From assembly GCA_022644565.1 (NCBI GenBank), contig JALCHG010000001.1:132-64131 (forward strand): DNA of 64,000 bases. The letters are read 5' to 3'. The translations under genes were made by a program, and so were the position numbers. This document shows, in pieces, positions 3,535 through 40,985 of this stretch. The notes beneath the pieces are model-generated. The model saw only the letters and a program-made list of their open reading frames with translations, made no database searches and was not told the DNA's origin. The DNA is from Solobacterium sp. GTDB lineage: Bacteria > Bacillota_I > Bacilli_A > Erysipelotrichales > Erysipelotrichaceae. Position 1 is the first letter of the stretch. Each line of letters begins with the position of its first letter.

Positions 3535-4629
3535 ATGGGGACACAGCGTGTCTATAACTTCGCAGCAGGCCCGAGTCAGCTGCCTCTGGAAGTGCTTGAA
3601 AGAGCGCAGAAAGAAATGCTCAACTACCATTCCAGTGGTATGTCAGTGATGGAGATGAGTCATCGATCATCCATTTTTCATTCCATCTATGTTCATACAG
3701 ATGAAGCTTTCCGCAAGGTCATGAATGTGCCGGACAATTATGATGTCCTGTATCTGACCGGCGGCGGTTCAACCCAGTTTGCCATGGTGCCGATGAATCT
3801 CATCGGCAGAACAAAAAAAGCCGATTATGCTCTGACGGGCAATTTCTCGGAAAAGGCATATGAGGAAGCCAAGCGCTATGGCAATGTCAGAGTGGCTTTC
3901 AGTGATAAGGAAAACGGCTACCATCATATTCCCCGTCAGGGTGAAATCGTGGTAGATCCGGATGCGTCTTACTTTCATTACTGTGCCAACAATACCATTT
4001 ACGGTACGGAGTGGCATTATGTACCGGATACAGGGAATGTGCCGTTAGTGGCGGATATGTCCAGTGATATTACTTCGGCCAAGGTGGATGTTTCAAAGTT
4101 TGCCTTGATTTATGCCGGTGCGCAGAAGAACATGGCGCCGGCCGGTGTGACGGTTGTGATCCTCCGCAAGGATCTTGATCTGCGGCCGCTGTCCTATACG
4201 CCGACCATGCTGAGGTACAAGACCCACATCGATAAGGAAAGCATGTACAATACGCCCCCATGCTGGCAGATCTATATGCTGGGACTGCAGATGGACTGGA
4301 TTCTGGAACAGGGCGGTATTGATGAGATGGAAAGAAGAAAGAAGGAAAGAGCCGGACTGCTGTACGGCACGCTGGACAATTCTTCTCTCTTCAAGCTGCA
4401 TGCGGATAAGGAATCCCGTTCTTATATGAATGTTACATTCCGTACCGGAGATGAAAATCTGGATAAGGAATTTGTGGCGGAAGCGGCTGAGCAGGGACTT
4501 GTTTCCCTGGCCGGCCATCGTCTGACCAAGGGCATGCGTGCTTCCATATACAACGCCATGCCTGTAGAAGGTGTAAAGAAACTGTGCAGCTTTATTGAAA
4601 CTTTTGATGCTGCACACAGGAAAGGATAA
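3535..4629 (+). CDS. serC: Phosphoserine aminotransferase
   Basis: YNFAAGPSQLP, MSVMEMSHRS, GGGSTQF, ANNTIYGT, YAGAQKNM (PLP Lys), YNTPP, GMRASIYNA. Confidence 0.96.
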   Translation: MGTQRVYNFAAGPSQLPLEVLERAQKEMLNYHSSGMSVMEMSHRSSIFHSIYVHTDEAFRKVMNVPDNYDVLYLTGGGSTQFAMVPMNLIGRTKKADYALTGNFSEKAYEEAKRYGNVRVAFSDKENGYHHIPRQGEIVVDPDASYFHYCANNTIYGTEWHYVPDTGNVPLVADMSSDITSAKVDVSKFALIYAGAQKNMAPAGVTVVILRKDLDLRPLSYTPTMLRYKTHIDKESMYNTPPCWQIYMLGLQMDWILEQGGIDEMERRKKERAGLLYGTLDNSSLFKLHADKESRSYMNVTFRTGDENLDKEFVAEAAEQGLVSLAGHRLTKGMRASIYNAMPVEGVKKLCSFIETFDAAHRKG

Positions 4630-13197: not shown

Positions 13198-13227
13198 AAT
13201 CCGCTTACATTTTTCTTACAATACAGA

Positions 13228-13482
13228 AAAGCAATGAAGGGAAAAAGTAAGCTTTTCGCCGATCTTGAGAGAGCTTTCTGCAAGCTGAAAGGAAAGCGTG
13301 AGGGAGAAGCTGAACACACATCCCGGAGCTGTCTGTTCGAACTGACAGTAGGGCAGATCGGTGTGTCCGTTAAAGCACAGGAGTATGATGAAAGTACTTC
13401 ATGAGGCTGTATTCGTGAGGATGCAGTGAAATTGGGTGGAACAGCGCTGCGGCGTCCCTTGTCAGGGATGCCGCTTTTGTTT
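13228..13482 (+). promoter_or_regulatory. T-box riboswitch, His specifier
   Basis: AGTA, GAGAG and GCTGAAA stem I motifs. Specifier loop GAA-CA-CAC-A (CAC at 13317-13319). T-box AATTGGGTGGAACAGCG (~13430-13446). Terminator GCGGCGTCCC-TTGTCA-GGGATGCCGC-TTTT. Promoter TTGAAA/TACAAT at ~13194-13222. Confidence 0.92.
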
Positions 13483-13497
13483 CAGAAGGAGAAAGTC

Positions 13498-14607
13498 ATG
13501 TACTATACAAGTGAAGCACCCGGCGGTATGCGTGATACGGCCGGCAGTGAAGCCGTGAAGAAGAAAAAGCTGCAGGGCAGAATTGAGAAGGTATTTGCTT
13601 CATACGGCTATGAACCGGTGTTTACACCGACCATTGAATACTATGAAACCTATGCCAGGGCATATGACGGCATCAGAGAAGAAGAGTTCTACAAGTTCTT
13701 CGATCAGGACGGCCGCATTCTTACTCTGCGTCCGGATATGACCATTCCGATTGCCCGCTTTACAGCTGGGCGGCTGGGCAGTCAGAAGCCGCCGTTCCGT
13801 TTTTCCTACAGTGCGGATGTGTTCAAGGTCAGACATACCTTTGCCGGCAAACGTTCAGAAGCGACTGACTGCGGGGTGGAATGCATCGGTCTGGATGAAA
13901 AGGATGATCTGGAAGTACTGGTGCTGGCCCTTGATACACTGAAGTGTCTTGGTACAGAGAATTATATGCTTGAGATCGGCAATTCCGGCTACTTCAAGGC
14001 AGCCGCCAGAAGCGCCGGCCTGCAGCAGGAACAGACCCGTATTCTGGCAGATCTGATTGACCGCAAATCCATGGTGGATCTGCAGGAATTTCTCGATGCT
14101 TCATCACTCAGTGAAAAGGGAACCGCCTTCTTCATGAAGCTGCCGTTATTAAGCGGGGATGTTTCGGTGCTGAAAGAGGCGGAGGATCTTTCCTTTACCG
14201 ATGAGCTGCATCGGGAAACGGCAAGGCTGACCAAACTGGATGAGATGCTCAGAACACTCGGGTGGGAAAAGCATATCAGCTATGACCTTGGCAAAGTGCC
14301 GCATCTGACCTATTACACCGGCATCATCTTTGAAGGATGGGTGGAAGGCCTTGGTGCTTCCGTGCTGTCCGGGGGAAGATATGATGATCTGCTGAAGAAA
14401 TTCGGAAGGGATCTGCCGGCCTGCGGCTTCGGTATGAAGATCGATGAAGCGGCGCAGCTGTTGAAGGATGAAGAAGAGAAAGTCATCACGGTACGCTATC
14501 CTGAAGGAAAGATTGCGGAAGCCCTGGCCAAAGCGGCAGCACTGCGGCAGAATCACCGCGTGATCATTGAAGAAGCGGATACAGATGAGGTGGAGGTAAT
14601 CGCATGA
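13498..14607 (+). CDS. hisZ: ATP phosphoribosyltransferase regulatory subunit
   Basis: HisRS-like: FTPTIEYY, LRPDMTIPIAR, YYTGIIFEG, GGRYDDLL; start at ATG 13498 after AAGGAG. Confidence 0.93.
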   Translation: MYYTSEAPGGMRDTAGSEAVKKKKLQGRIEKVFASYGYEPVFTPTIEYYETYARAYDGIREEEFYKFFDQDGRILTLRPDMTIPIARFTAGRLGSQKPPFRFSYSADVFKVRHTFAGKRSEATDCGVECIGLDEKDDLEVLVLALDTLKCLGTENYMLEIGNSGYFKAAARSAGLQQEQTRILADLIDRKSMVDLQEFLDASSLSEKGTAFFMKLPLLSGDVSVLKEAEDLSFTDELHRETARLTKLDEMLRTLGWEKHISYDLGKVPHLTYYTGIIFEGWVEGLGASVLSGGRYDDLLKKFGRDLPACGFGMKIDEAAQLLKDEEEKVITVRYPEGKIAEALAKAAALRQNHRVIIEEADTDEVEVIA

Positions 14608-15230
14608 TATCAGTAGCACTGACCAAAGGCCGACTGGAGAAGTCCTCTACGGCCATGCTGGAAAAAGCAGGCTATGGGGTGGAAAAGCTGAAGGACAAAG
14701 GCAGGGCGCTTGTCTTCCCCGATACGGTGAAGGATGTGCGCTACTTCCTGGTCAAAGCCAATGACTGCATTACCTATGTGGAACACGGCGTAGCTGATAT
14801 CGGCATTGTCGGCAAGGATACGATTCTGGAAGGCGGAAATGATTATTATGAAATGCTGGATCTGAAGATCGGTGAATGTAAATTCATCTGTGCTTCTCTG
14901 CCGGATCATAATCCGCTCACGATGTCCGGTCATATCCGGATCGGCACCAAATATCCGGAAGTCACAAGACGCTATTTCCGCCAGCTCGGCAAGGATGTTG
15001 AAATCATCAAGATTGACGGTTCGGTGGAACTGTCGCCGATTCTGGGACTTGTGGATGGCATTGTGGATATCATGGAGACCGGGACAACCCTCAGAGAAAA
15101 CGGGCTTGTAGTCTATGATACGGTATGCCGGATTTCAGCCCGGGCAATTGTCAACCGGGCTGCGTACCGGCTGAAACATGAAGAAGTCATGACATTTCTG
15201 AATGATCTGAAAAAGCAGGTAAAGGAGTGA
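14604..15230 (+). CDS. hisG: ATP phosphoribosyltransferase (short form)
   Basis: ALTKGRL, YVEHGVADIGIVGKD, TKYP, GSVELSP, DIMETGTTL. Confidence 0.96.
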   Translation: MISVALTKGRLEKSSTAMLEKAGYGVEKLKDKGRALVFPDTVKDVRYFLVKANDCITYVEHGVADIGIVGKDTILEGGNDYYEMLDLKIGECKFICASLPDHNPLTMSGHIRIGTKYPEVTRRYFRQLGKDVEIIKIDGSVELSPILGLVDGIVDIMETGTTLRENGLVVYDTVCRISARAIVNRAAYRLKHEEVMTFLNDLKKQVKE

Positions 15231-33493: not shown

Positions 33494-33589
33494 TTACCTT
33501 ACCTCCTTTTCTTACACCAATAATATAGCATATTATATGTAATATATAAATGCTGCTATAAAATATTTCTTAAAAACGCCTAAAATAAT

Positions 33590-33618
33590 AAAAACCATCG
33601 ATATATTCGATGGTTTTC
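33590..33618 (-). terminator. Terminator immediately downstream of tRNA-Arg
   Basis: AAAACCATCG-ATATATT-CGATGGTTTT inverted repeat with T-runs. Confidence 0.75.
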
Positions 33619-33631
33619 AATAAAATGAAGG

Positions 33632-33705
33632 TGTGCCCGATGGGGCTCGAACCCACAACCTTTTGCTTCGGAGGCAAATACGCTATCCAGTTGCGCTACG
33701 GGCAC
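33632..33705 (-). tRNA. tRNA-Arg(CCG)
   Basis: Minus strand GTGCCCGTAGCGCAACTGGATAGCGTATTTGCCTCCGAAGCAAAAGGTTGTGGGTTCGAGCCCCATCGGGCACA; acceptor stem GTGCCCG/CGGGCAC, anticodon arm TTTGC-CTCCGAA-GCAAA, GTTCGAG T-loop. CCA is not fully encoded (ACCT). Confidence 0.95.
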
Positions 33706-33745
33706 ATGCATGTATTATAATAACACAGTTCTGAGGAGAAAAGAA

Positions 33746-34558
33746 ATGAGTGAAGATATCAGTGCAATCAGATTGATCGTCTGCGACATTGACAATACGC
33801 TGCTGCCGTCGGGCCGGGATGATTTGTCCGATTATACATATGCAGCCCTGTTCAGGGCACTGCAGAAGGGATATAAGCTGCTGATCTGTACGGGCAGACA
33901 TTATACCCTCATGCCCAAAGGGATGATGGCAAAGCTGCCGATGGAGCGGATCGGTACGATCAACGGCGCTTGCCTGTGTGATCACGACGGGCATACGATT
34001 GAGAAACATCCGATGAAGGAAGAAGATATGAATACCATTACCAGGATCTGTATTGAAAATGATATCGGTCTTGGCTTCAAGTTTGAGGATGCCATTGTCA
34101 CCTATGCCAATTATGAACGCTTTGTGGCCAATTATGCCAAGAAGCCGGGGGAAGCGGAGCTGATTGTCAATGATGACGCAAAGCGTACGCATCATCTGAA
34201 ATATGGTCTTCCTTTAGGTACGTTCATTGTCGGGGATGAAAGCAAGATCGAACCGTTTGTCGGTACGATGGACAATTTGATCTTTGCCTGGTCCCACCGC
34301 AGCGGGTATGATGTATTCCTGAAGGATATCAACAAGAGTACGGCGGTGGAAAGAGTGCTGAAGGACGAAGGATTGACATGGGACAATGTCATTGCCTTCG
34401 GCGATGCCGGCAATGATACGCCGATGATTGATAAGGCAAGGATCGGGGTCGCGCTTGGCAATGCCAAGGATAATGTGCAGGCACATGCGGATATTGTAGC
34501 GGATACGTGTGCCAATGACGGTGCTGCAAGGGTGCTGGAAGAGCTTGGAATTGCCTGA
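33746..34558 (+). CDS. Cof-type HAD-IIB hydrolase
   Basis: VCDIDNTLL, CTGR, INGA, KSTAV, AFGDAGNDTPMI. Confidence 0.92.
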   Translation: MSEDISAIRLIVCDIDNTLLPSGRDDLSDYTYAALFRALQKGYKLLICTGRHYTLMPKGMMAKLPMERIGTINGACLCDHDGHTIEKHPMKEEDMNTITRICIENDIGLGFKFEDAIVTYANYERFVANYAKKPGEAELIVNDDAKRTHHLKYGLPLGTFIVGDESKIEPFVGTMDNLIFAWSHRSGYDVFLKDINKSTAVERVLKDEGLTWDNVIAFGDAGNDTPMIDKARIGVALGNAKDNVQAHADIVADTCANDGAARVLEELGIA

Positions 34559-34645
34559 GCAGGTCCATAACACACAATCCATACAAAGATACTTGACAAT
34601 AGGTAAAATAAGCGTAAAGTAGTGGACAAGGAAAGGGGAACAGCC

Positions 34646-34711
34646 ATGAAGATGTACAGTGCAGTCTGTTGTATGTTTGAACATAAAACTGAATTTCTGC
34701 ATACGTACTGA
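34646..34711 (+). CDS. Leader peptide MKMYSAVCCMFEHKTEFLHTY with tandem Cys codons
   Basis: Purine-rich RBS AAGGAAAGGGG 7 nt before the ATG; TGT TGT at 34667-34672; lies between promoter TTGACA (34593) and terminator 34753-34786. Confidence 0.6.
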   Translation: MKMYSAVCCMFEHKTEFLHTY

Positions 34712-34752
34712 GCAGGCTCCTTTTTCGACACGTGGAATACATGAAGTGAATG

Positions 34753-34786
34753 GCAGATGTGCAGGCGTACATCTGTTTTTTGTTTT
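34753..34786 (+). terminator. Leader (attenuator) terminator upstream of the ABC operon
   Basis: GCAGATGTGC-AGGC-GTACATCTGT followed by TTTTTGTTTT, ending ~14 nt before the permease start. Confidence 0.75.
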
Positions 34787-34799
34787 ATAAAGGAGGCTT

Positions 34800-35459
34800 A
34801 TGAACTGGACGATTATGCAGTCATACTGGCCGCTGTTTCTGGCGGCTGCCGGGGTAACCCTGCGGATTTCCTTCTTCGGCATTCTGCTGGCGGTGATCCT
34901 CGGCATGGTCATCAGTCTGATCCAGTATGCAAAGATACCGGTATTAAGACAGATCGCATCTGTCTATATTGAATTGAGCCGCAATACACCGCTGCTGGTG
35001 CAGCTGTTCTTCATCTACTTCGGTCTGCCAAAGCTTGGCGTGGTATTGAGCGGGGAAGCAAGTGCGATTGCCGGGGTTGTGTTTCTGGGCGGCAGCTACT
35101 TTGCGGAGAACTTCAGATCAGGTCTTGAAGCAGTGGCTGTAAGCCAGAAGGAATCAGCGCTGTCGCTTGGCATGAGCGGTGCCCAGGCGATGCGCTATGT
35201 CATCCTGCCCCAGGCATTAAGAGTGGCTCTGCCGGGCTTCTTTGCCAATGTGATCTTTCTGATCAAGGAAACTTCGGTTGTTTCGGCCATTGCCGTACCG
35301 GATCTGATGTATGTGGCAAAGGATCTGATGGGCAATGACTACCGTACGGCGGAAGCGCTGGGGATGCTTGTTATCTTCTATCTGATCATCATCCTGCCGG
35401 TGACGATACTGGCCTATGTTCTGGAAAGGAGGCTGCGGTATGGGAAAGTCAGGCATTGA
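34800..35459 (+). CDS. Polar amino-acid ABC permease
   Basis: YIELSRNTPLLVQLFFIYFGLP, EAA loop, VILPQALR, LIKETS. Confidence 0.93.
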   Translation: MNWTIMQSYWPLFLAAAGVTLRISFFGILLAVILGMVISLIQYAKIPVLRQIASVYIELSRNTPLLVQLFFIYFGLPKLGVVLSGEASAIAGVVFLGGSYFAENFRSGLEAVAVSQKESALSLGMSGAQAMRYVILPQALRVALPGFFANVIFLIKETSVVSAIAVPDLMYVAKDLMGNDYRTAEALGMLVIFYLIIILPVTILAYVLERRLRYGKVRH

Positions 35460-36114
35460 ACTTTTAGCCAACTACAAGTACTGGATCCGGCTTCTGGAAG
35501 GATTATGGGTGACGATCCGGATTGCGTTGATCTCAACCGGATTATCCATGGTGCTGGGAACGCTGCTTGGTATGGTCATGACGATCAAGAACAGGATCAT
35601 CACGGTCATCACACAGATCTATCTCGGCTTTGTCAGAATCATGCCGCAGCTTGTTCTGCTGTTCATTGTCTTCTATGGCTTTTCAAGATGGACAGGCCTG
35701 ATGATGGATGCGGAGACAAGTGCAATTGTGGTGTTTACATTCTGGGGTACAGCGGAAACGGCGGACCTTGTCAGAGGTGCTCTGGAGTCCATCCCGGCTC
35801 ACCAGTATGAATCTGCCTATGCTCTTGGCATGAATCAGAAACAGACGTTCCGGTATGTGATTCTGCCCCAGACCATGAGACGGCTTTTACCGCCTCTTAT
35901 CAATCTGATTACCCGTATGATCAAGACGACTTCGCTTGTGGAGATCATCGGCCTTGTTGAAGTGCTTAAGACCGGCCAGCAGATTATTGATGCCAACCGG
36001 ATGAAATACGCAGATGGTGCTTTCTGGATCTATGCAGCGGTATTTGTGCTGTACTTCCTGATCTGCTGGCCGATCAGCAGCTATGCAAAGCATCTGGAAA
36101 AGAAGTGGAGGTGA
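35440..36114 (+). CDS. Polar amino-acid ABC permease
   Basis: [32 protein letters not shown]; ATG 35440 after GGAGG. Confidence 0.92.
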
Positions 36115-36121
36115 AAGGAAG

Positions 36122-36895
36122 ATGGAAAACAGAATACAGCTTTCCGTAAAGGATCTGGTGAAATCATATGATGGCAGGAATGAAGTGCTCAACGGCATCA
36201 GCTTTGATGTTCATCAGGGTGAAGTCGTTGTCATTCTGGGACCGTCAGGCTGCGGCAAGTCTACGCTGCTCAGATGCCTGAATGGACTGGAAACATATCA
36301 GTCCGGTTCCATTACCCTGGATGGACAGCCCATCACCCATGGCGGAAAAAACATGAATGCCATGCGCCAGAGAATCGGGATGGTCTTTCAGAGCTATGAT
36401 CTTTTCCCGCATTATACCGTGCTGGACAATATCACGCTGGCCCCTGTCAAAGTAGTCCATCGGCCTAAGAAAGAGACAGAAGCCGAAGCACGGGCACTGT
36501 TGAAAAGAGTCGGACTTGAAGATAAGGCAGATGCCTATCCCAATGAACTGTCCGGCGGACAGAAACAGAGAGTGGCGATCTGCCGGGCGCTGATCATGAA
36601 GCCGGAAGTGATGCTGTTTGATGAAGTGACGGCAGCACTTGATCCGGAGATGGTTCATGAAGTGCTGAATGTCATGATGGAGCTGGCTGACCAGGGCATG
36701 ACCATGGTCATTGTCACCCATGAGATGAAGTTTGCGGAAGCGATCGGGGATAGAGTATTGTTCCTGGATGACGGCAAGATCGTTGAAGAAAATACACCGG
36801 AAGGCTTCTTCCATCACCCTAAGACAGAGCGGGCGGATGCCTTTCTGCATACATTTACCTATACAAGAAAAAGAGCTGAGAAAAGCGCTCAGTAA
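36122..36895 (+). CDS. Polar amino-acid ABC ATPase
   Basis: [38 protein letters not shown]. Confidence 0.95.
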
Positions 36896-36912
36896 ATAAG
36901 GAGGATAAGAAT

Positions 36913-37782
36913 ATGTCACGTACAAAGCTGATCAAAGGTTTACTCGCAGGATTTTTAACCGTAGGACTGGCCGGCTGCGGCAGTACGGCAGCCAGCAAAT
37001 CCGCTTCTTCCACTTCTTCAAGTGATACAGGAACGGTATTCCGTACGGTGGATGAAATCAAGAAAGACGGTACGCTAAGAGTTGCCGTATTCAGTGATAA
37101 GGCGCCGTTCGGCTATGTGGATGAGAATGGTGATTACCAGGGCTATGATGTGTATTATGCCAAGCGCATTGCCAAGGATCTCGGGGTAGATGTTGAATTT
37201 ACGCCGGTATCACCGAGCGCCCGTATTGATATTGTCAATTCCGGCCAGGTGGATATTACGCTTGCCAACTTTACCGTCACGGATGAAAGAGCCAAGCAGG
37301 TTGATTTCACAGCACCTTATATGAAAGTTGCTTTAGGTGTCGTTTCCCCTGACAGTGCTGTGATTACGGATGTCAATGATCTCAAGGAGCTGATTGTTGC
37401 CAAGGGCACAACGGCTGAAACCTACTTTGAAGAAAACTATCCGGATGTCAAGCTCATCAAGTATGATGAATATGCGGATGCCTACAATGCTTTACTGGAT
37501 GGCAGAGGACCTGCCTTCTCCACAGATAACACGGAAGTACTGGCATGGGCCAAGTCCAATCCGGGCTATACGGTAGGTATTACCCAGCTTGGTGACTATG
37601 ATGCCATTGCTCCGGCTGTTGCCAAAGGCAATAAGACATTGGCTGATTTCCTGAATGATGAAATCCAGACGCTCGGTGATGAGCAGTTCTTCCACAAGGA
37701 TTATGAGGAAACGCTGCGTCCGGTCTATGGCGATGCGGCTGATCCGGATGAGATTGTGGTTGAATACGGCAAGATTGACTGA
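36913..37782 (+). CDS. Amino-acid ABC substrate-binding lipoprotein, CjaA-like (probable cysteine)
   Basis: Lipobox LAGC; VAVFSDKAPFGYVDENGDYQGYDVYYAKRIAKDL, LANFTVTDERAKQVDF, STDNTEVLAWAK and LGDEQFFHKDYEETL resemble the CjaA cysteine-binding family. Confidence 0.82.
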   Translation: MSRTKLIKGLLAGFLTVGLAGCGSTAASKSASSTSSSDTGTVFRTVDEIKKDGTLRVAVFSDKAPFGYVDENGDYQGYDVYYAKRIAKDLGVDVEFTPVSPSARIDIVNSGQVDITLANFTVTDERAKQVDFTAPYMKVALGVVSPDSAVITDVNDLKELIVAKGTTAETYFEENYPDVKLIKYDEYADAYNALLDGRGPAFSTDNTEVLAWAKSNPGYTVGITQLGDYDAIAPAVAKGNKTLADFLNDEIQTLGDEQFFHKDYEETLRPVYGDAADPDEIVVEYGKID

Positions 37783-37884
37783 GCAATCAGGACGGATTGT
37801 CAATTCCAATCTGAATGAAGTGTAATAGAATACATCATGTGCAGTATGTACATGATGTTTCTTTTTGCCTGAATGGAGGAAGCT

Positions 37885-38799
37885 ATGGAAGTTTATGAAA
37901 AAGTAGATGAACTGCCGCAGGGGCAGGCAGATCTTCGTTATCTTCAGCATGGCTGTATGGTGCTGGAAGGCGGCGCATGGCGCGGTATCTATACCCAGGG
38001 GGTATTGGATGCCCTGATGGAAAATGATATCAATCTGGACTGCACCATCGGCGTATCGGCCGGGGCCATGTCAGGACTGGCCTATGTCAGCGGACAGATC
38101 GGCTTTTCCGGCCGGATGAATCTTACCTACCGCAATGATCAGAATTACTGCGGCATCGGTGCTTTGAAAAAGGATCACGGCATTACCGGATTTACGTATG
38201 CTTTTACGGAACTGTTTGATAAAGGCGGTTTTGCCAGAGCCGACTTTCTGAACAGTCCCCGCAGATATGTGGCTGTCGCAACGGATATCGGTACCGGAAA
38301 GCCGGTTTTCTTTGAAAAGGGAAAGTGCCCGGATATCTTCAAAGCCGTGCAGGCAAGTGCAACAGTACCGTATGTGTCAGAACCGGTGGAGATTGAAGGC
38401 AGAAAGTATCTCGATGGCGGCCTTGGCGTAAAGGTGCCGTATGAATGGGCATTGAAAGAAGGTTATGAGAAGATTGTTGTCATCCGCACCCGGGACAGGG
38501 ACTACCGCAAGCCGGTGAAGAAGCCGATAAGCATCAACCATATGTATCGCAAAGAACCCGAAACCATGGAAGATCTGATGGAAGAAGCACCGCGCTATAA
38601 TATCTCACTGGATAAGCTAGACATGCTGGAAAAGAAAAAGAGACTGTATGTCATTGCCCCGTCCAAGCCGATTACGATCAGAAGGTTTGAAGATGATATG
38701 AACAAGCTCGGCGGTCTGTACTGGCAGGGGTATGAAGATGGAAAGAATGAAATCAGGGGTCTTAAAGCATACCTTGGCATCAGCACGCAGGAAAAGTGA
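37885..38799 (+). CDS. Patatin family protein
   Basis: LEGGAWRG, GVSAG, DGG; ATG 37885 after GGAGG. Confidence 0.9.
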   Translation: MEVYEKVDELPQGQADLRYLQHGCMVLEGGAWRGIYTQGVLDALMENDINLDCTIGVSAGAMSGLAYVSGQIGFSGRMNLTYRNDQNYCGIGALKKDHGITGFTYAFTELFDKGGFARADFLNSPRRYVAVATDIGTGKPVFFEKGKCPDIFKAVQASATVPYVSEPVEIEGRKYLDGGLGVKVPYEWALKEGYEKIVVIRTRDRDYRKPVKKPISINHMYRKEPETMEDLMEEAPRYNISLDKLDMLEKKKRLYVIAPSKPITIRRFEDDMNKLGGLYWQGYEDGKNEIRGLKAYLGISTQEK

Positions 38800-38831
38800 C
38801 CTGCGTGTTTTTTTCTTCTATAATCATGAGT

Positions 38832-40985
38832 ATGAAAGATATTCTTGAAGATCTCAATGAAGAACAGAAAGAAGCCGTTACGACGACCGAAGGCTATGTG
38901 GCAGTCATTGCCGGGGCCGGTTCCGGCAAAACCCGTGCTCTGACAAGACGCTTTGCGTATCTCATCAATGAAGTGGGAATTTCACCCGGCAATATTCTCT
39001 GTGTCACCTTTACCAACAAAGCCGCTAGTGAAATGCGCCAGCGTATTCATGCGCTGACAGATGATGCCGACACAGGCTATATCAATACCTTCCATGGCTT
39101 CTGTGTATCTGTGCTGCAGGAAGACAGCCATGTCATTCATTATCCCAAGAGTTTCATGGTACTCGATAACGGAGATATCGATGATATGCTCAATATCATC
39201 TATGAAGAAAGAAATCTCACTTCCCGGGATATGACATTCTCCCAGGCAAGAGATATGTTTGAAATGCGCAAGTGCATCACGGAACGCAGTTACTTTCATG
39301 ATCTTATTGATCTTTCTTTAAAGGATCTGGAAGAGAAGTATCGGCAGGCGAGTGAAGTAAAGGACATTCTGTTCTATGGCTATCTGTACCAGGAAAGAAA
39401 GTGCTTCGGGCTGGATTACAATGATCTGATTATTCTGACGCTGCATATCTTTCATACGGATGAAGCTGTGCATCTGAAGTGGCAGAAGCGATTGGAATAC
39501 ATCATGGTGGATGAGTTTCAGGATATTGATCCGCTGCAGTATGAATTGATGGAATCCTTATGCGGGTATTATGAAAATCTGTTTGTGGTGGGGGATCCTG
39601 ACCAGACGATCTATACCTGGCGCGGAGCCCGCATCGGCTATATTCTTGACTTTGAAAGATCCCATCATGACGCAAAGACGATCATGATGATGAAAAACTA
39701 CCGTTCCACCCCTGAAATCCTGCAGGCATGTAATTCTCTGATTTCAAAAAACCGCAATCGGATTGAAAAGAATCTTGTTCCGATGCTGCCTTCCGGTAAG
39801 CCGGTGCGCTATCATCATGCCAAAACCCAGGAAAAGGAAGCACAGTTCATCGCGGCTGAGATTGAGAAGCTTCATGAAACAGGCGTGGATTACCGGGATA
39901 TGACAATTCTCTATCGGGCGCATTATGTTTCAAGGCAGATTGAAGAGATACTGATAAAAAAAGAGATTCCCTACCGGATCTATTCCGGCGTATCCTTCTT
40001 TGACCGGATGGAAATCAAGGATGCCATTGCCTATCTGCGTATGATTGCACGGCAGGATGATCTTTCTTTCCGGCGCATTGTCAACCAGCCAAAACGCAAC
40101 ATCGGCAGAAGGCGGATGGCTTACCTGGAACAGCTTGCGGCCCAAAGCGGCAAAACTCTCTATACCTGTCTGAATGAAAATCTGGAAGATCCGCTTTTTA
40201 CCGGCACAAAGGCAAAGCAGTTCATCAGCCTCATTGAAAAATACCGCCATCAGAGCGATCTGCCCATTTCAAAGATACTGACCGGCATTCTGGAAGACAG
40301 CGGATATGAGAAGATGCTCAGAACAGAAGGTGCACAGGAAAGGCTGGATGATCTTGCCGAGCTCAAGCAGTCTGTACTGGAATATGAAATGACATGCGGT
40401 GAGGAAACAGATCTGCAGACCTATCTGTCTCAGATTGCCCTGTATACCAGTACGGACATGGAAGACCATAAAGACGAAGTGAAGATGATGAGCGTTCATG
40501 CCGCCAAGGGGCTTGAATTTCCCTATGTATTTCTGGCCGGCATGAACGAAGGTATTTTCCCAAGCCGTAAAATCACTTCCGAAACGGAAATGGAAGAAGA
40601 AAGAAGACTGGCTTTTGTGGCCATGACAAGAGCTGAGAAGGGACTGATTCTGAGTGATGCTGAAGGACGCAACTTCAACAATACCTACCGCTATCCTTCC
40701 CGCTTTATTCTGGACATTGACCGGCCGTACATTCAGTATGATGAACCGCTGTCTGAGGATCTGATCCGTAAGATAGAAAACTGGATCCGCAGGGGACCCG
40801 GTGCTTCCATCCGCAAGGATGAACTGCCGTTTCATGAAAAGGACAGGGTTTACCATAAGATGTTTGGAGAAGGAACGATCCAGAAGATCAATTTCAAAGA
40901 GGGAAGTGTTGAGATCCGCTTTGACCGTTTTGAAAGAGAAAGAGTATTAAGTATTTCGGCTCTGGATAAGATGGAAAAGAGATGA
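38832..40985 (+). CDS. pcrA: UvrD/PcrA ATP-dependent DNA helicase
   Basis: AGAGSGKT, TFTNKAA, DEFQD, VGDPDQTIY, NYRST, SVHAAKGLEF, FVAMTRA. Confidence 0.88.
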   Translation: MKDILEDLNEEQKEAVTTTEGYVAVIAGAGSGKTRALTRRFAYLINEVGISPGNILCVTFTNKAASEMRQRIHALTDDADTGYINTFHGFCVSVLQEDSHVIHYPKSFMVLDNGDIDDMLNIIYEERNLTSRDMTFSQARDMFEMRKCITERSYFHDLIDLSLKDLEEKYRQASEVKDILFYGYLYQERKCFGLDYNDLIILTLHIFHTDEAVHLKWQKRLEYIMVDEFQDIDPLQYELMESLCGYYENLFVVGDPDQTIYTWRGARIGYILDFERSHHDAKTIMMMKNYRSTPEILQACNSLISKNRNRIEKNLVPMLPSGKPVRYHHAKTQEKEAQFIAAEIEKLHETGVDYRDMTILYRAHYVSRQIEEILIKKEIPYRIYSGVSFFDRMEIKDAIAYLRMIARQDDLSFRRIVNQPKRNIGRRRMAYLEQLAAQSGKTLYTCLNENLEDPLFTGTKAKQFISLIEKYRHQSDLPISKILTGILEDSGYEKMLRTEGAQERLDDLAELKQSVLEYEMTCGEETDLQTYLSQIALYTSTDMEDHKDEVKMMSVHAAKGLEFPYVFLAGMNEGIFPSRKITSETEMEEERRLAFVAMTRAEKGLILSDAEGRNFNNTYRYPSRFILDIDRPYIQYDEPLSEDLIRKIENWIRRGPGASIRKDELPFHEKDRVYHKMFGEGTIQKINFKEGSVEIRFDRFERERVLSISALDKMEKR

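Follow-up and report, generated by a model that had tools for sequence, protein, structure and literature searches.

A Probable Cysteine-Codon Leader-Peptide Attenuator before a CjaA-Like ABC Importer Operon in a Rumen Erysipelotrichaceae Genome

Organization of the Leader and of the Downstream Operon

The DNA analyzed here is a window of 64,000 nucleotides (nt) from Solobacterium sp. (contig JALCHG010000001.1), a rumen member of the Erysipelotrichaceae. Our subject is the leader at 34593-34800, which precedes a four-gene ATP-binding cassette (ABC) importer operon and carries a promoter, a small open reading frame (sORF) with two tandem cysteine codons and an intrinsic terminator. Leader-peptide attenuation is a textbook mechanism of Proteobacteria and is held to be rare in Firmicutes, in which the regulation of cysteine genes is ascribed to T-boxes, S-boxes and CymR. 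An earlier note on this sequence had proposed that the leader senses cysteine through ribosome stalling at the Cys codons. The cysteine-sensing leader-peptide interpretation is supported by the conservation of Cys codons, a nucleotide motif and the terminator among orthologs. We regard it as likely that the leader is a classical ribosome-mediated transcription attenuator, which would sense charged tRNA-Cys and control the CjaA-like importer operon.

All features of the leader and of the operon lie on the + strand. The sigma-70-type promoter (34593-34620) consists of a -35 element TTGACA (34593-34598), a 16-nt spacer and a -10 element TAAAGT (34615-34620). With 10 of 12 consensus matches, it is the top promoter-like site within 33500-39500, and the transcript is predicted to start about 7 nt past TAAAGT, at ~34627-34629. 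The sORF MKMYSAVCCMFEHKTEFLHTY (34646-34711) has 21 codons and a TGA stop, and is led by its own Shine-Dalgarno (SD) sequence GGAAAGGGGA (34630-34639), placed 6 nt before the ATG at 34646. Codons 8 and 9 are the tandem Cys codons TGT TGT (34667-34672), directly followed by an ATG (Met10). The intrinsic terminator, that is, the putative attenuator (34752-34787), has an 11-base-pair (bp) stem (34752-62/34767-77) and a loop AGGC. Its hairpin reads GGCAGATGTGC-AGGC-GTACATCTGTT at 34752-34777 and is followed by TTTTGTTTT; the first two letters of the U-tract TTTTTTGTTTT are the last two bases of the stem (34776-77). The hairpin alone has a predicted energy of -14.1 kcal/mol and ends 22 nt ahead of the ATG of the first permease gene (34800), whose own SD is AAAGGAGG (34790-34797). 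The gap between terminator and permease is too short for a separate promoter, and the combination of promoter, SD-led sORF, terminator and SD was found once in the window. The earlier note had therefore located correctly the promoter, the ribosome-binding site, the 21-codon reading frame with TGT TGT and the terminator before the permease.

Segment 1, GTACAGTGCAG (34654-34664), is the 5' strand of a hairpin predicted in the ribosome-free leader. Segment 2 belongs to a motif, TTTCTGCATACGTACTGAGC (34694-34713), that overlaps the stop codon of the sORF, and its pairing part (34694-34708) is the candidate 5' strand of an antiterminator. It is followed by an anti-SD element, AGGCTCCTTTTTC (34714-34726), complementary both to the leader SD (34631-39) and to the SD region of the permease (34789-98).

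The operon starts with an ABC permease of the polar-amino-acid type (34800-35459; 219 amino acids, no Cys), which matches Pfam BPD_transp_1 and, above its cut-off, NCBIfam HEQRo_perm_3TM. A second permease (35416-36114; 232 amino acids) and an ATPase (36083-36895; 270 amino acids), both assigned by profile matches, precede a CjaA-like substrate-binding lipoprotein (36913-37782; 289 amino acids) with a lipobox LAGC and the domain PF00497 (SBP_bac_3). As the earlier note had anticipated, the binding protein is closest, among solved structures, to Campylobacter jejuni CjaA (1xt8; E=1.7e-81, 52% identity), with 2yjp (E=2.1e-70, 49% identity) in second place; these two cysteine receptors stand far ahead of other solute receptors. 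According to Müller et al. (2005; cited in PMC4178425), CjaA binds cysteine. Because the binding protein is CjaA-like, and orthologs are under Cys T-box, Rrf2-type or Cys-leader control, the four-gene importer probably takes up cysteine. The four transporter proteins hold only 6 Cys among 1010 residues (0.6%), against 1.8% in the long open reading frames of the window, and the sole Cys of the binding protein is that of the lipobox, a composition that fits proteins made under cysteine scarcity.

The operon ends at a terminator with a 12-bp stem, ACATCATGTGCAGTATGTACATGATGT (37832-37858), which has ATGTGCAG...GTACAT in common with the attenuator terminator (GGCAGATGTGCAGGCGTACATCTG, 34752-34777).

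Conservation of the Leader in Related Operons

Relatives with 65-94% permease identity were gathered from a protein search and contig look-ups. A scan of genome contigs contributed one near-identical relative, and its other relatives, at no more than 66% identity, have other regulators. Orthologous operons at 94, 78, 71, 66, 65 and 65% identity are all preceded by an SD-led Cys-rich sORF, a terminator with a U-tract and a permease SD. In the relative at 94% (L062), the leader peptide is MKMYSAVCCMFEHKTDFLHTY; both TGT codons are kept and the sORF differs from that of the window by one synonymous and one conservative change. In the five more distant lineages, without exception among those retrieved, the sORF has 4-10 Cys codons. 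Their leader peptides are MAMSTWKNTNACWCCRMMNANFLPCVLTADESE in L065 (78%; Cys-bearing part ..NACWCCRMMNANFLPCVLTADESE), MTEKMNQFVKSESFCCCRRDCCEIFAMRADS in L066 (71%; ..SFCCCRRDCCEIFAMRADS), MYRTVNACCECCCQVCCDTSV in L153 (66%; ..NACCECCCQVCCDTSV), MVNVTVMNIMNNCCCCCRNCIASFLPCVQQFSDCK in L154 (65%; ..NNCCCCCRNCIASFLPCVQQFSDCK) and MTAYRMIHNTCSNACCCCCEKSSASLCCAHCLL in Solobacterium L155-158 (65%; ..NACCCCCEKSSASLCCAHCLL), and examples of the runs found among orthologs are CWCCRMM, FCCCRRDCC, NNCCCCCRNC and ACCCCCEK.

Conservation of the Cys codons and of the reading frame had been set beforehand as a test that could refute the proposal, and both are conserved in all five distant lineages and in the 94% relative. 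In the leader alignment, the TGT TGT columns of the window fall on the Cys runs of all relatives, and the distance read from the peptides between the Cys run and a pair of F-L codons is seven codons in the window, L065 and L154. Judged from the sequences compared, the window holds the most reduced copy of the family, with two Cys codons against 3-10 in related gut Firmicutes.

The 3' end of the sORF is kept as a nucleotide motif (relatives, TTTYGCCATGCGTGCTGA; window, TTTCTGCATACGTACTGA), although it is read in different frames (FLHTY and a stop in the window, FLPCV in L065 and L154, IFAMRADS and a stop in L066). The constraint on this part therefore appears to act on the RNA, and that on the Cys run on codons. 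What the leaders share is limited to the Cys run, the segment-2 motif and the terminator, and the remainder of the peptide varies. Over seven leaders, RNAalifold recovered no conserved structure but the terminator, in which 5 of 9 pairs show compensatory changes. The hairpin covariation that the earlier note had suggested checking is thus present in the terminator and in no other structure of these seven leaders.

Comparisons with close strains suggest that the window leader is under strong purifying selection. Isolate RUG503 (L001), with 98% permease identity, differs from the window at one of 177 positions in 34623-34799, an extra T in the U-tract, whereas its flanking genes differ by 5.6-18.6% and its promoter spacer by 15.6%. 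For a second strain, represented by a 4.8-kb contig (run X25), 84 differences were counted over 1487 nt, none of them within 34623-34855. In L062, changes are confined to linkers, leaving unchanged the stretches 34645-89 (codons 1-14), 34694-724 (motif and anti-SD) and 34737-75 (terminator). The -35 and -10 elements are retained in L001 and L062, with a variable spacer between them.

Transcripts of the region are represented in rumen metatranscriptomes by contigs that cover 34642-34814 without differences (X29) and 34592-34742 (X30). Two such contigs (X29 and X31) run across the terminator into the permease gene, and further RNA runs contain the operon at low depth. Being assembled low-depth contigs that carry no information on 3' ends, they speak for presence only and not for regulation.

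Leaders in Distant Orthologs

Independent poly-Cys leaders with terminators also occur in distant orthologs, at 55-63% identity, among the matches listed in a metagenome scan. A Lachnospiraceae metagenome-assembled genome (MAG; L086) has the leader SMCCCSM and a Clostridiales MAG (L004) the leader MMIDLCMCCCCIC; that of L080 is MMECMMCCCCCC. Faecalibacterium leaders begin with MMCCCAMCCCTANASRTG.. and MMCCRAMCCC.., of the MMCCCAMCCC type, and the permease that follows equals WP_097801740.1 of F. langellae, from a cluster of 1867 members.

The Faecalibacterium orthologs (L081-L085, L130-L148, L132 and L080; for example, L130:205-455) share the leader pattern MMCCCAMCCC(T/C)ANASRTG.. and, after it, a GC-rich terminator and an SD. 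Part of their sORF, GCUUCCCGG, resembles the terminator 3' arm GCUUCCGGG; in L080, another segment, CUCUUGGGC, is complementary to the same terminator 5' arm.

An sORF with CC and at least four Cys was present in 22 of 103 unique upstream regions, compared with 9 of 1030 dinucleotide shuffles (0.9%) and 2 of 103 reverse complements. The conservation of the leader across orthologs is far beyond chance.

Met codons are frequent beside the Cys runs (CCM, CCRMM, MMCCCAMCCC, MMECMMCCCCCC, SMCCCSM). In the leaders of the window, L065, L066, L154, L155, L080, L081, L130, L086 and L004, Met other than the initiator accounts for 22 of 324 residues (6.8%). Such a neighborhood of Met and Cys may mean that the leaders sense the two sulfur amino acids together, or that alternative start codons are used.

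Folding of the Leader and Proposed Mechanism

In the minimum free energy fold of the ribosome-free leader, the leader SD (34631-39) is paired with the anti-SD (34718-26), and segment 1 with segment 2 (34654-57:34705-08 and 34659-64:34697-702). A short hairpin spanning the Cys codons (34668-76:34681-89) and the terminator complete the fold. The leader folds better than its shuffled versions (z=-2.5). An 11-bp version of the SD:anti-SD helix, GGAAAGGAGCC:GGCUCCUUUUC, is retained in L062, and the initiation region of the sORF finds a complement in the conserved motif of L154 (12 bp), L066 and L065. Over six leaders, the latter complementarity has a Fisher p=0.007, driven by L154 alone and with a non-significant value in the window. 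These data suggest that closure of the leader ribosome-binding site, once the sORF has been translated for the first time, may be common to the leaders.

Segment 1 recurs as a direct repeat in segment 3 (AGATGTACAG/AGATGTGCAG; GTGCAG/GTGCAG). Such repeats are what a scheme of 1:2, 2:3 and 3:4 pairings needs, which favors the register UCUGCAUA:UGUGCAGG for the antiterminator. The repetition goes further: the terminator region (34740-34785) is echoed, imperfectly and in collapsed form, by the 5' half of the sORF (34645-34678), with CATGAAG, AGATGTACAG/AGATGTGCAG, GTGCAG and TCTGTTGTATGTTT/TCTGTTTTTTGTTT as directly repeated units and the Cys codons opposite the U-tract. It may reflect an origin by duplication or the relation between segments 1 and 3 that an attenuator requires. 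We considered that TGT TGT might be merely a decayed copy of the U-tract (TCTGTTGTATGTTT/TCTGTTTTTTGTTT); this would hardly account for the whole pattern, since the relatives align with the window both in the Cys columns and in the seven-codon spacing to the F-L codons.

The mechanism that we propose has four steps. Transcription would start ~7 nt past TAAAGT, and the SD at 34630-39 would bring a ribosome to the 21-codon sORF. When Cys-tRNA is ample, this ribosome would reach the UGA (34709-11), where, with the stop codon in the aminoacyl (A) site, its footprint of ~34694-34721 would cover segment 2 (34694-34708); the 3:4 terminator (34752-77 and the U-tract) would then form and stop transcription 22 nt before the permease gene. 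If the sORF is not translated, segment 1 would pair with segment 2 and the SD with the anti-SD, leaving the terminator again free to form. When Cys-tRNA is scarce, the ribosome would stall at Cys8 or Cys9, with UGU 34667 or 34670 in the A site, and its footprint of ~34652-34682 would cover segment 1 (34654-64). Segment 2, thus freed, would base-pair with terminator sequences of the 5' arm and the loop (as UCUGCAUA:UGUGCAGG or as UCUGC:GCAGA), allowing read-through. The data show the anatomy of the leader, its conserved elements, the link of the operon to cysteine and the transcription of the leader; ribosome stalling, the choice of antiterminator and the sense in which cysteine regulates the operon are inferred.

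A fold of the transcript cut at the terminator loop, with the RNA masked up to the stalled ribosome, is consistent with the last step: 34696-700 pairs with 34753-57 and 34689-91 with 34762-64, at -15.2 kcal/mol, versus -7.2 kcal/mol with the ribosome at the stop codon, where this pairing is lost. Switches of the same type are predicted in L062, L065 (CAUGUGUGC:GCAUGCAUG) and L066.

The alternative pairings listed in the earlier note can likewise be drawn, namely GTATGT (34671-76) with GCATAC (34699-704), TCTGCATA (34696-703) with TGTGCAGG (34758-65), over 8 bp including two G-U, and AGATGTAC (34650-57) with GTACATCT (34767-74), a perfect 8 bp. The letters are as described, but none of these alternatives is established statistically or thermodynamically.

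Several points weigh against the attenuator as proposed. Equilibrium folds keep the terminator in every ribosome-masked state and so do not discriminate between states, and when only one stalled ribosome is masked no antiterminator is predicted, because the SD:anti-SD helix stays in place and wins. The ribosome-masked folding suggested in the earlier note gave a divided answer, with an antiterminator in the cut transcript only if all RNA upstream of the stalled ribosome is masked and a terminator in all equilibrium states. The complementarity between the 3' end of the sORF and the terminator 5' arm lies within the range of shuffled sequences (RNAduplex on the long segment, z=-0.43, p=0.32), as does that of the 20-nt motif in the window (p=0.15). 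Over six leaders, the antiterminator complementarity reaches only a Fisher p=0.22, and in the duplex tests leaders did not favor their own terminators over those of other leaders. Since the duplex tests were non-significant, we claim no antiterminator register; the predicted antiterminator is weak and its register unproven.

In addition, the window copy has two Cys codons only, and ~47 ATG-started sORFs with tandem Cys codons occur by chance on the two strands of the window. Taken alone, the window is weak evidence. The ligand specificity of the binding protein is a prediction from 52% identity, and the RNA support comes from few contigs, assembled at low depth and possibly containing DNA. Finally, transcription and translation are reportedly uncoupled in B. 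subtilis, a finding attributed to Johnson et al. in 2020; such uncoupling, if phylum-wide, would make classical attenuation harder.

Alternative Explanations

A first alternative keeps the attenuator and replaces its sensor: a protein or a small molecule would act on the 5' domain (34631-34726), and the Cys codons would be a remnant. The good fold of the leader relative to shuffles, with a closed domain held by the SD:anti-SD helix, could be read in this way, as could the loss of most Cys codons from the window peptide relative to its relatives and the missing statistical support for the antiterminator. On the other hand, no Rfam family (4227 models) matches 34450-34900 even at E<=10, and the T-box covariance model (RF00230) gives no match there at the same threshold in a scan that detects two T-boxes elsewhere. 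Neither did Rfam return a leader or riboswitch family in the leaders of L004, L065, L066, L080, L081, L086, L130 and L132. Explanations by a T-box, an S-box/SAM element or a known leader were dropped on these grounds, in agreement with the earlier note, which had seen no T-box or S-box motif here. The terminator is the one structure conserved in the seven aligned leaders, which argues against a hidden aptamer, and conservation in the 5' part concerns the Cys run, not a fold. Moreover, the sORF and both TGT codons are invariant in strains whose flanks differ by 6-19%, and codons 1-14 are the same in L062. We consider this alternative unlikely.

A second alternative is that the sORF works mainly on translation or mRNA stability, in the manner of the mycobacterial poly-Cys sORFs. 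The position of the ribosome would free or occupy the anti-SD (34714-26), which is able to pair with the permease SD (34789-98). Within this element, AGGCTCCTTT (34714-34723) is 90% complementary over 10 nt to the permease SD region AAAGGAGGCT (34789-34798), so that it can pair with either of the two SDs, and the Cys sORFs of mycobacteria act without intrinsic terminators (PMC1262725; bioRxiv 10.1101/834739). Nevertheless, in every member of the family a strong terminator with a U-tract separates the sORF from the permease SD and shows compensatory changes, and L065 and L066 were seen by eye to lack the anti-SD element. The complementarity is also generic, because any CUCC element pairs with any SD. 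We find it improbable that the sORF acts mainly at this level, and equally improbable that cysteine controls the translation of the permease instead of, or besides, termination; a translational layer added through pairing of the anti-SD with the permease SD is possible.

That the Cys-rich sORFs encode functional micropeptides (e.g., thiol- or metal-binding ones), co-expressed with the transporter through a leaky terminator, is very improbable. In its favor are the good SDs and the Cys-rich peptides in many lineages. Against it, peptide length and sequence vary freely outside the Cys run, the 3' part is kept as nucleotides in differing frames, the window peptide has 2 Cys only, and in every case the peptide is accompanied by a terminator right before a cysteine-type importer.

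Other Regulators of the Same Operon Family

Orthologs of the window operon are found under other kinds of control. In L029 (Clostridium thermobutyricum), a T-box (3732-3946; 113.6 bits) lies upstream of the orthologous operon, and its specifier aligns as UGC followed by A, that is, as Cys. In L073, L107, L118, L086, L155-158 and the Coriobacteriia L007-L019, a palindrome (A/T)CCTA-N10-TAGG(T/A), identified by eye, spans the -35 TTGACA. Next to it, the Solobacterium L155-158 (L155:1212-1500) have a divergent gene of the Rrf2 family. Dual control is suggested for L155 and L086, in which the palindrome coexists with a poly-Cys leader. The T-box and Rrf2-type control of orthologs indicates that the family is cysteine-regulated, and at least one member answers the same signal as that proposed for the window.

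The promoter of the window, TAC-TTGACAA-TAGGTA, contains the right half-site alone, and this half-site is gone in L001 and L062 (by eye, without a matrix). A CymR-type operator was rejected for this promoter, since it would consist of a non-conserved half-site only, and a repressor operator thus seems absent. For the same reason, the attenuator is probably the main control in the window.

In four further orthologs (L011, L018, L023 and L040), the permease comes right after a gene resembling MetI-type methionine permeases, and in L006 right after one resembling O-acetylhomoserine sulfhydrylase; inspection of the 3' ends by eye showed no leader in either arrangement.

The window itself has two T-boxes, in accordance with the earlier note: one at 714-964, ahead of asparagine synthase B (asnB, 1005-2582), and one at 13225-13462, ahead of hisZ-hisG (13426-15230). 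Upstream of the leader, a gene for a Cof-type HAD hydrolase (listed open reading frame 33710-34558) ends at 34558. Its start abuts the edge of a tRNA-Arg gene (CCG; 33630-33705, - strand), which is located between an SdpI-like gene and the hydrolase gene.

Comparison with Known Systems

The leader resembles trpL, hisL, pheL, thrL and leuL of Proteobacteria in its promoter-proximal, SD-led sORF, its tandem cognate codons and its terminator before the first gene. As in those attenuators, segments 1 and 3 and segments 2 and 4 are related, and a ribosome terminating at the stop codon would cover segment 2. The number of regulatory codons is likewise two in trpL. The differences are that the window belongs to Bacillota (Erysipelotrichaceae), that the amino acid is Cys and the operon encodes an importer instead of a biosynthetic pathway, that the antiterminator is weak or unproven, and that there is no sequence similarity or Rfam match.

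Consecutive Cys codons upstream of cysteine-related operons are also known from mycobacteria and other Actinobacteria (bioRxiv 10.1101/834739; PMC1262725). The polycysteine sORFs of mycobacteria are leaderless and cysteine-responsive in cis (bioRxiv 10.1101/834739), the Cys leaders of Actinobacteria have no intrinsic terminators (PMC1262725), and Rho or translational mechanisms have been proposed for them (bioRxiv 10.1101/834739; PMC1262725). Unlike the leaderless sORFs, that of the window has an SD, a predicted 5' untranslated region of ~18 nt and a canonical terminator. A closer likeness is found in uORFC-8-2 of cysS in Rhodobacterales, with two tandem Cys codons, stems and a U-tract terminator, for which ribosome-mediated attenuation sensing Cys-tRNA was proposed (PMC8632094). 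That element is alphaproteobacterial, however, lies before cysS and not before a transporter, has its Cys codons at positions 14-15 and is unrelated in sequence.

The Cys T-box (RF00230) of L029 shares with the window leader the operon family, tRNA-Cys charging as the signal and an output through terminator and antiterminator, but a T-box RNA itself binds the tRNA, and the window leader has no T-box. CymR/Rrf2 systems are similar in that orthologs of the window operon are under such control, and differ in that the window keeps only the TAGGTA half-site. Within Firmicutes, there is precedent for ribosome-mediated control of termination in bmrB-bmrCD of B. subtilis (PMC4191407) and in the His leader peptides upstream of hisZ/hisS paralogues in bacilli (PMC2965389). 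In contrast to the window leader, bmrB answers antibiotics and the bacillar leaders use His codons.

In the full-text literature, we found no Cys leader peptide described in Firmicutes and none for Faecalibacterium, only those of Actinobacteria and Rhodobacterales; subscription literature lies outside this coverage, so that "undescribed" is provisional. The earlier note had called the sensor unusual for this lineage. This holds as far as descriptions go, but such leaders are recurrent before this operon in gut Firmicutes.

Significance of the Leader Family

Our data support a Cys-codon leader-peptide attenuator of the classical type in Bacillota, located before an importer operon. Whether the window copy is also the minimal member of an undescribed and widespread class of sulfur-amino-acid leader attenuators in gut Bacillota, which perhaps reads the charging of both Cys- and Met-tRNA, is a question on which we see the balance as even. 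The class as proposed would comprise Erysipelotrichaceae including Solobacterium, Faecalibacterium, and Lachnospiraceae/Clostridiales MAGs, always before a CjaA-type cysteine importer. For the window, the practical outcome is the annotation of a regulatory sORF with its attenuator and of a probable cysteine importer, and the wider leader family is a more interesting result than this one copy.

If the proposed mechanism is true, the position of a ribosome can govern termination by RNA polymerase in bacteria in which T-boxes, riboswitches and repressors are thought to serve this role. One operon family would then be found under a Cys T-box, an Rrf2-type operator, a poly-Cys leader or two of these together, a case of regulator exchange with the same signal maintained. 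The class includes Faecalibacterium, which is among the most abundant genera of the human gut. Poly-Cys leaders would provide annotation-free markers of cysteine-starvation genes and a direct test of translation-transcription coordination in Clostridia and Erysipelotrichia, and they could serve as compact cysteine-responsive reporter parts for anaerobes.

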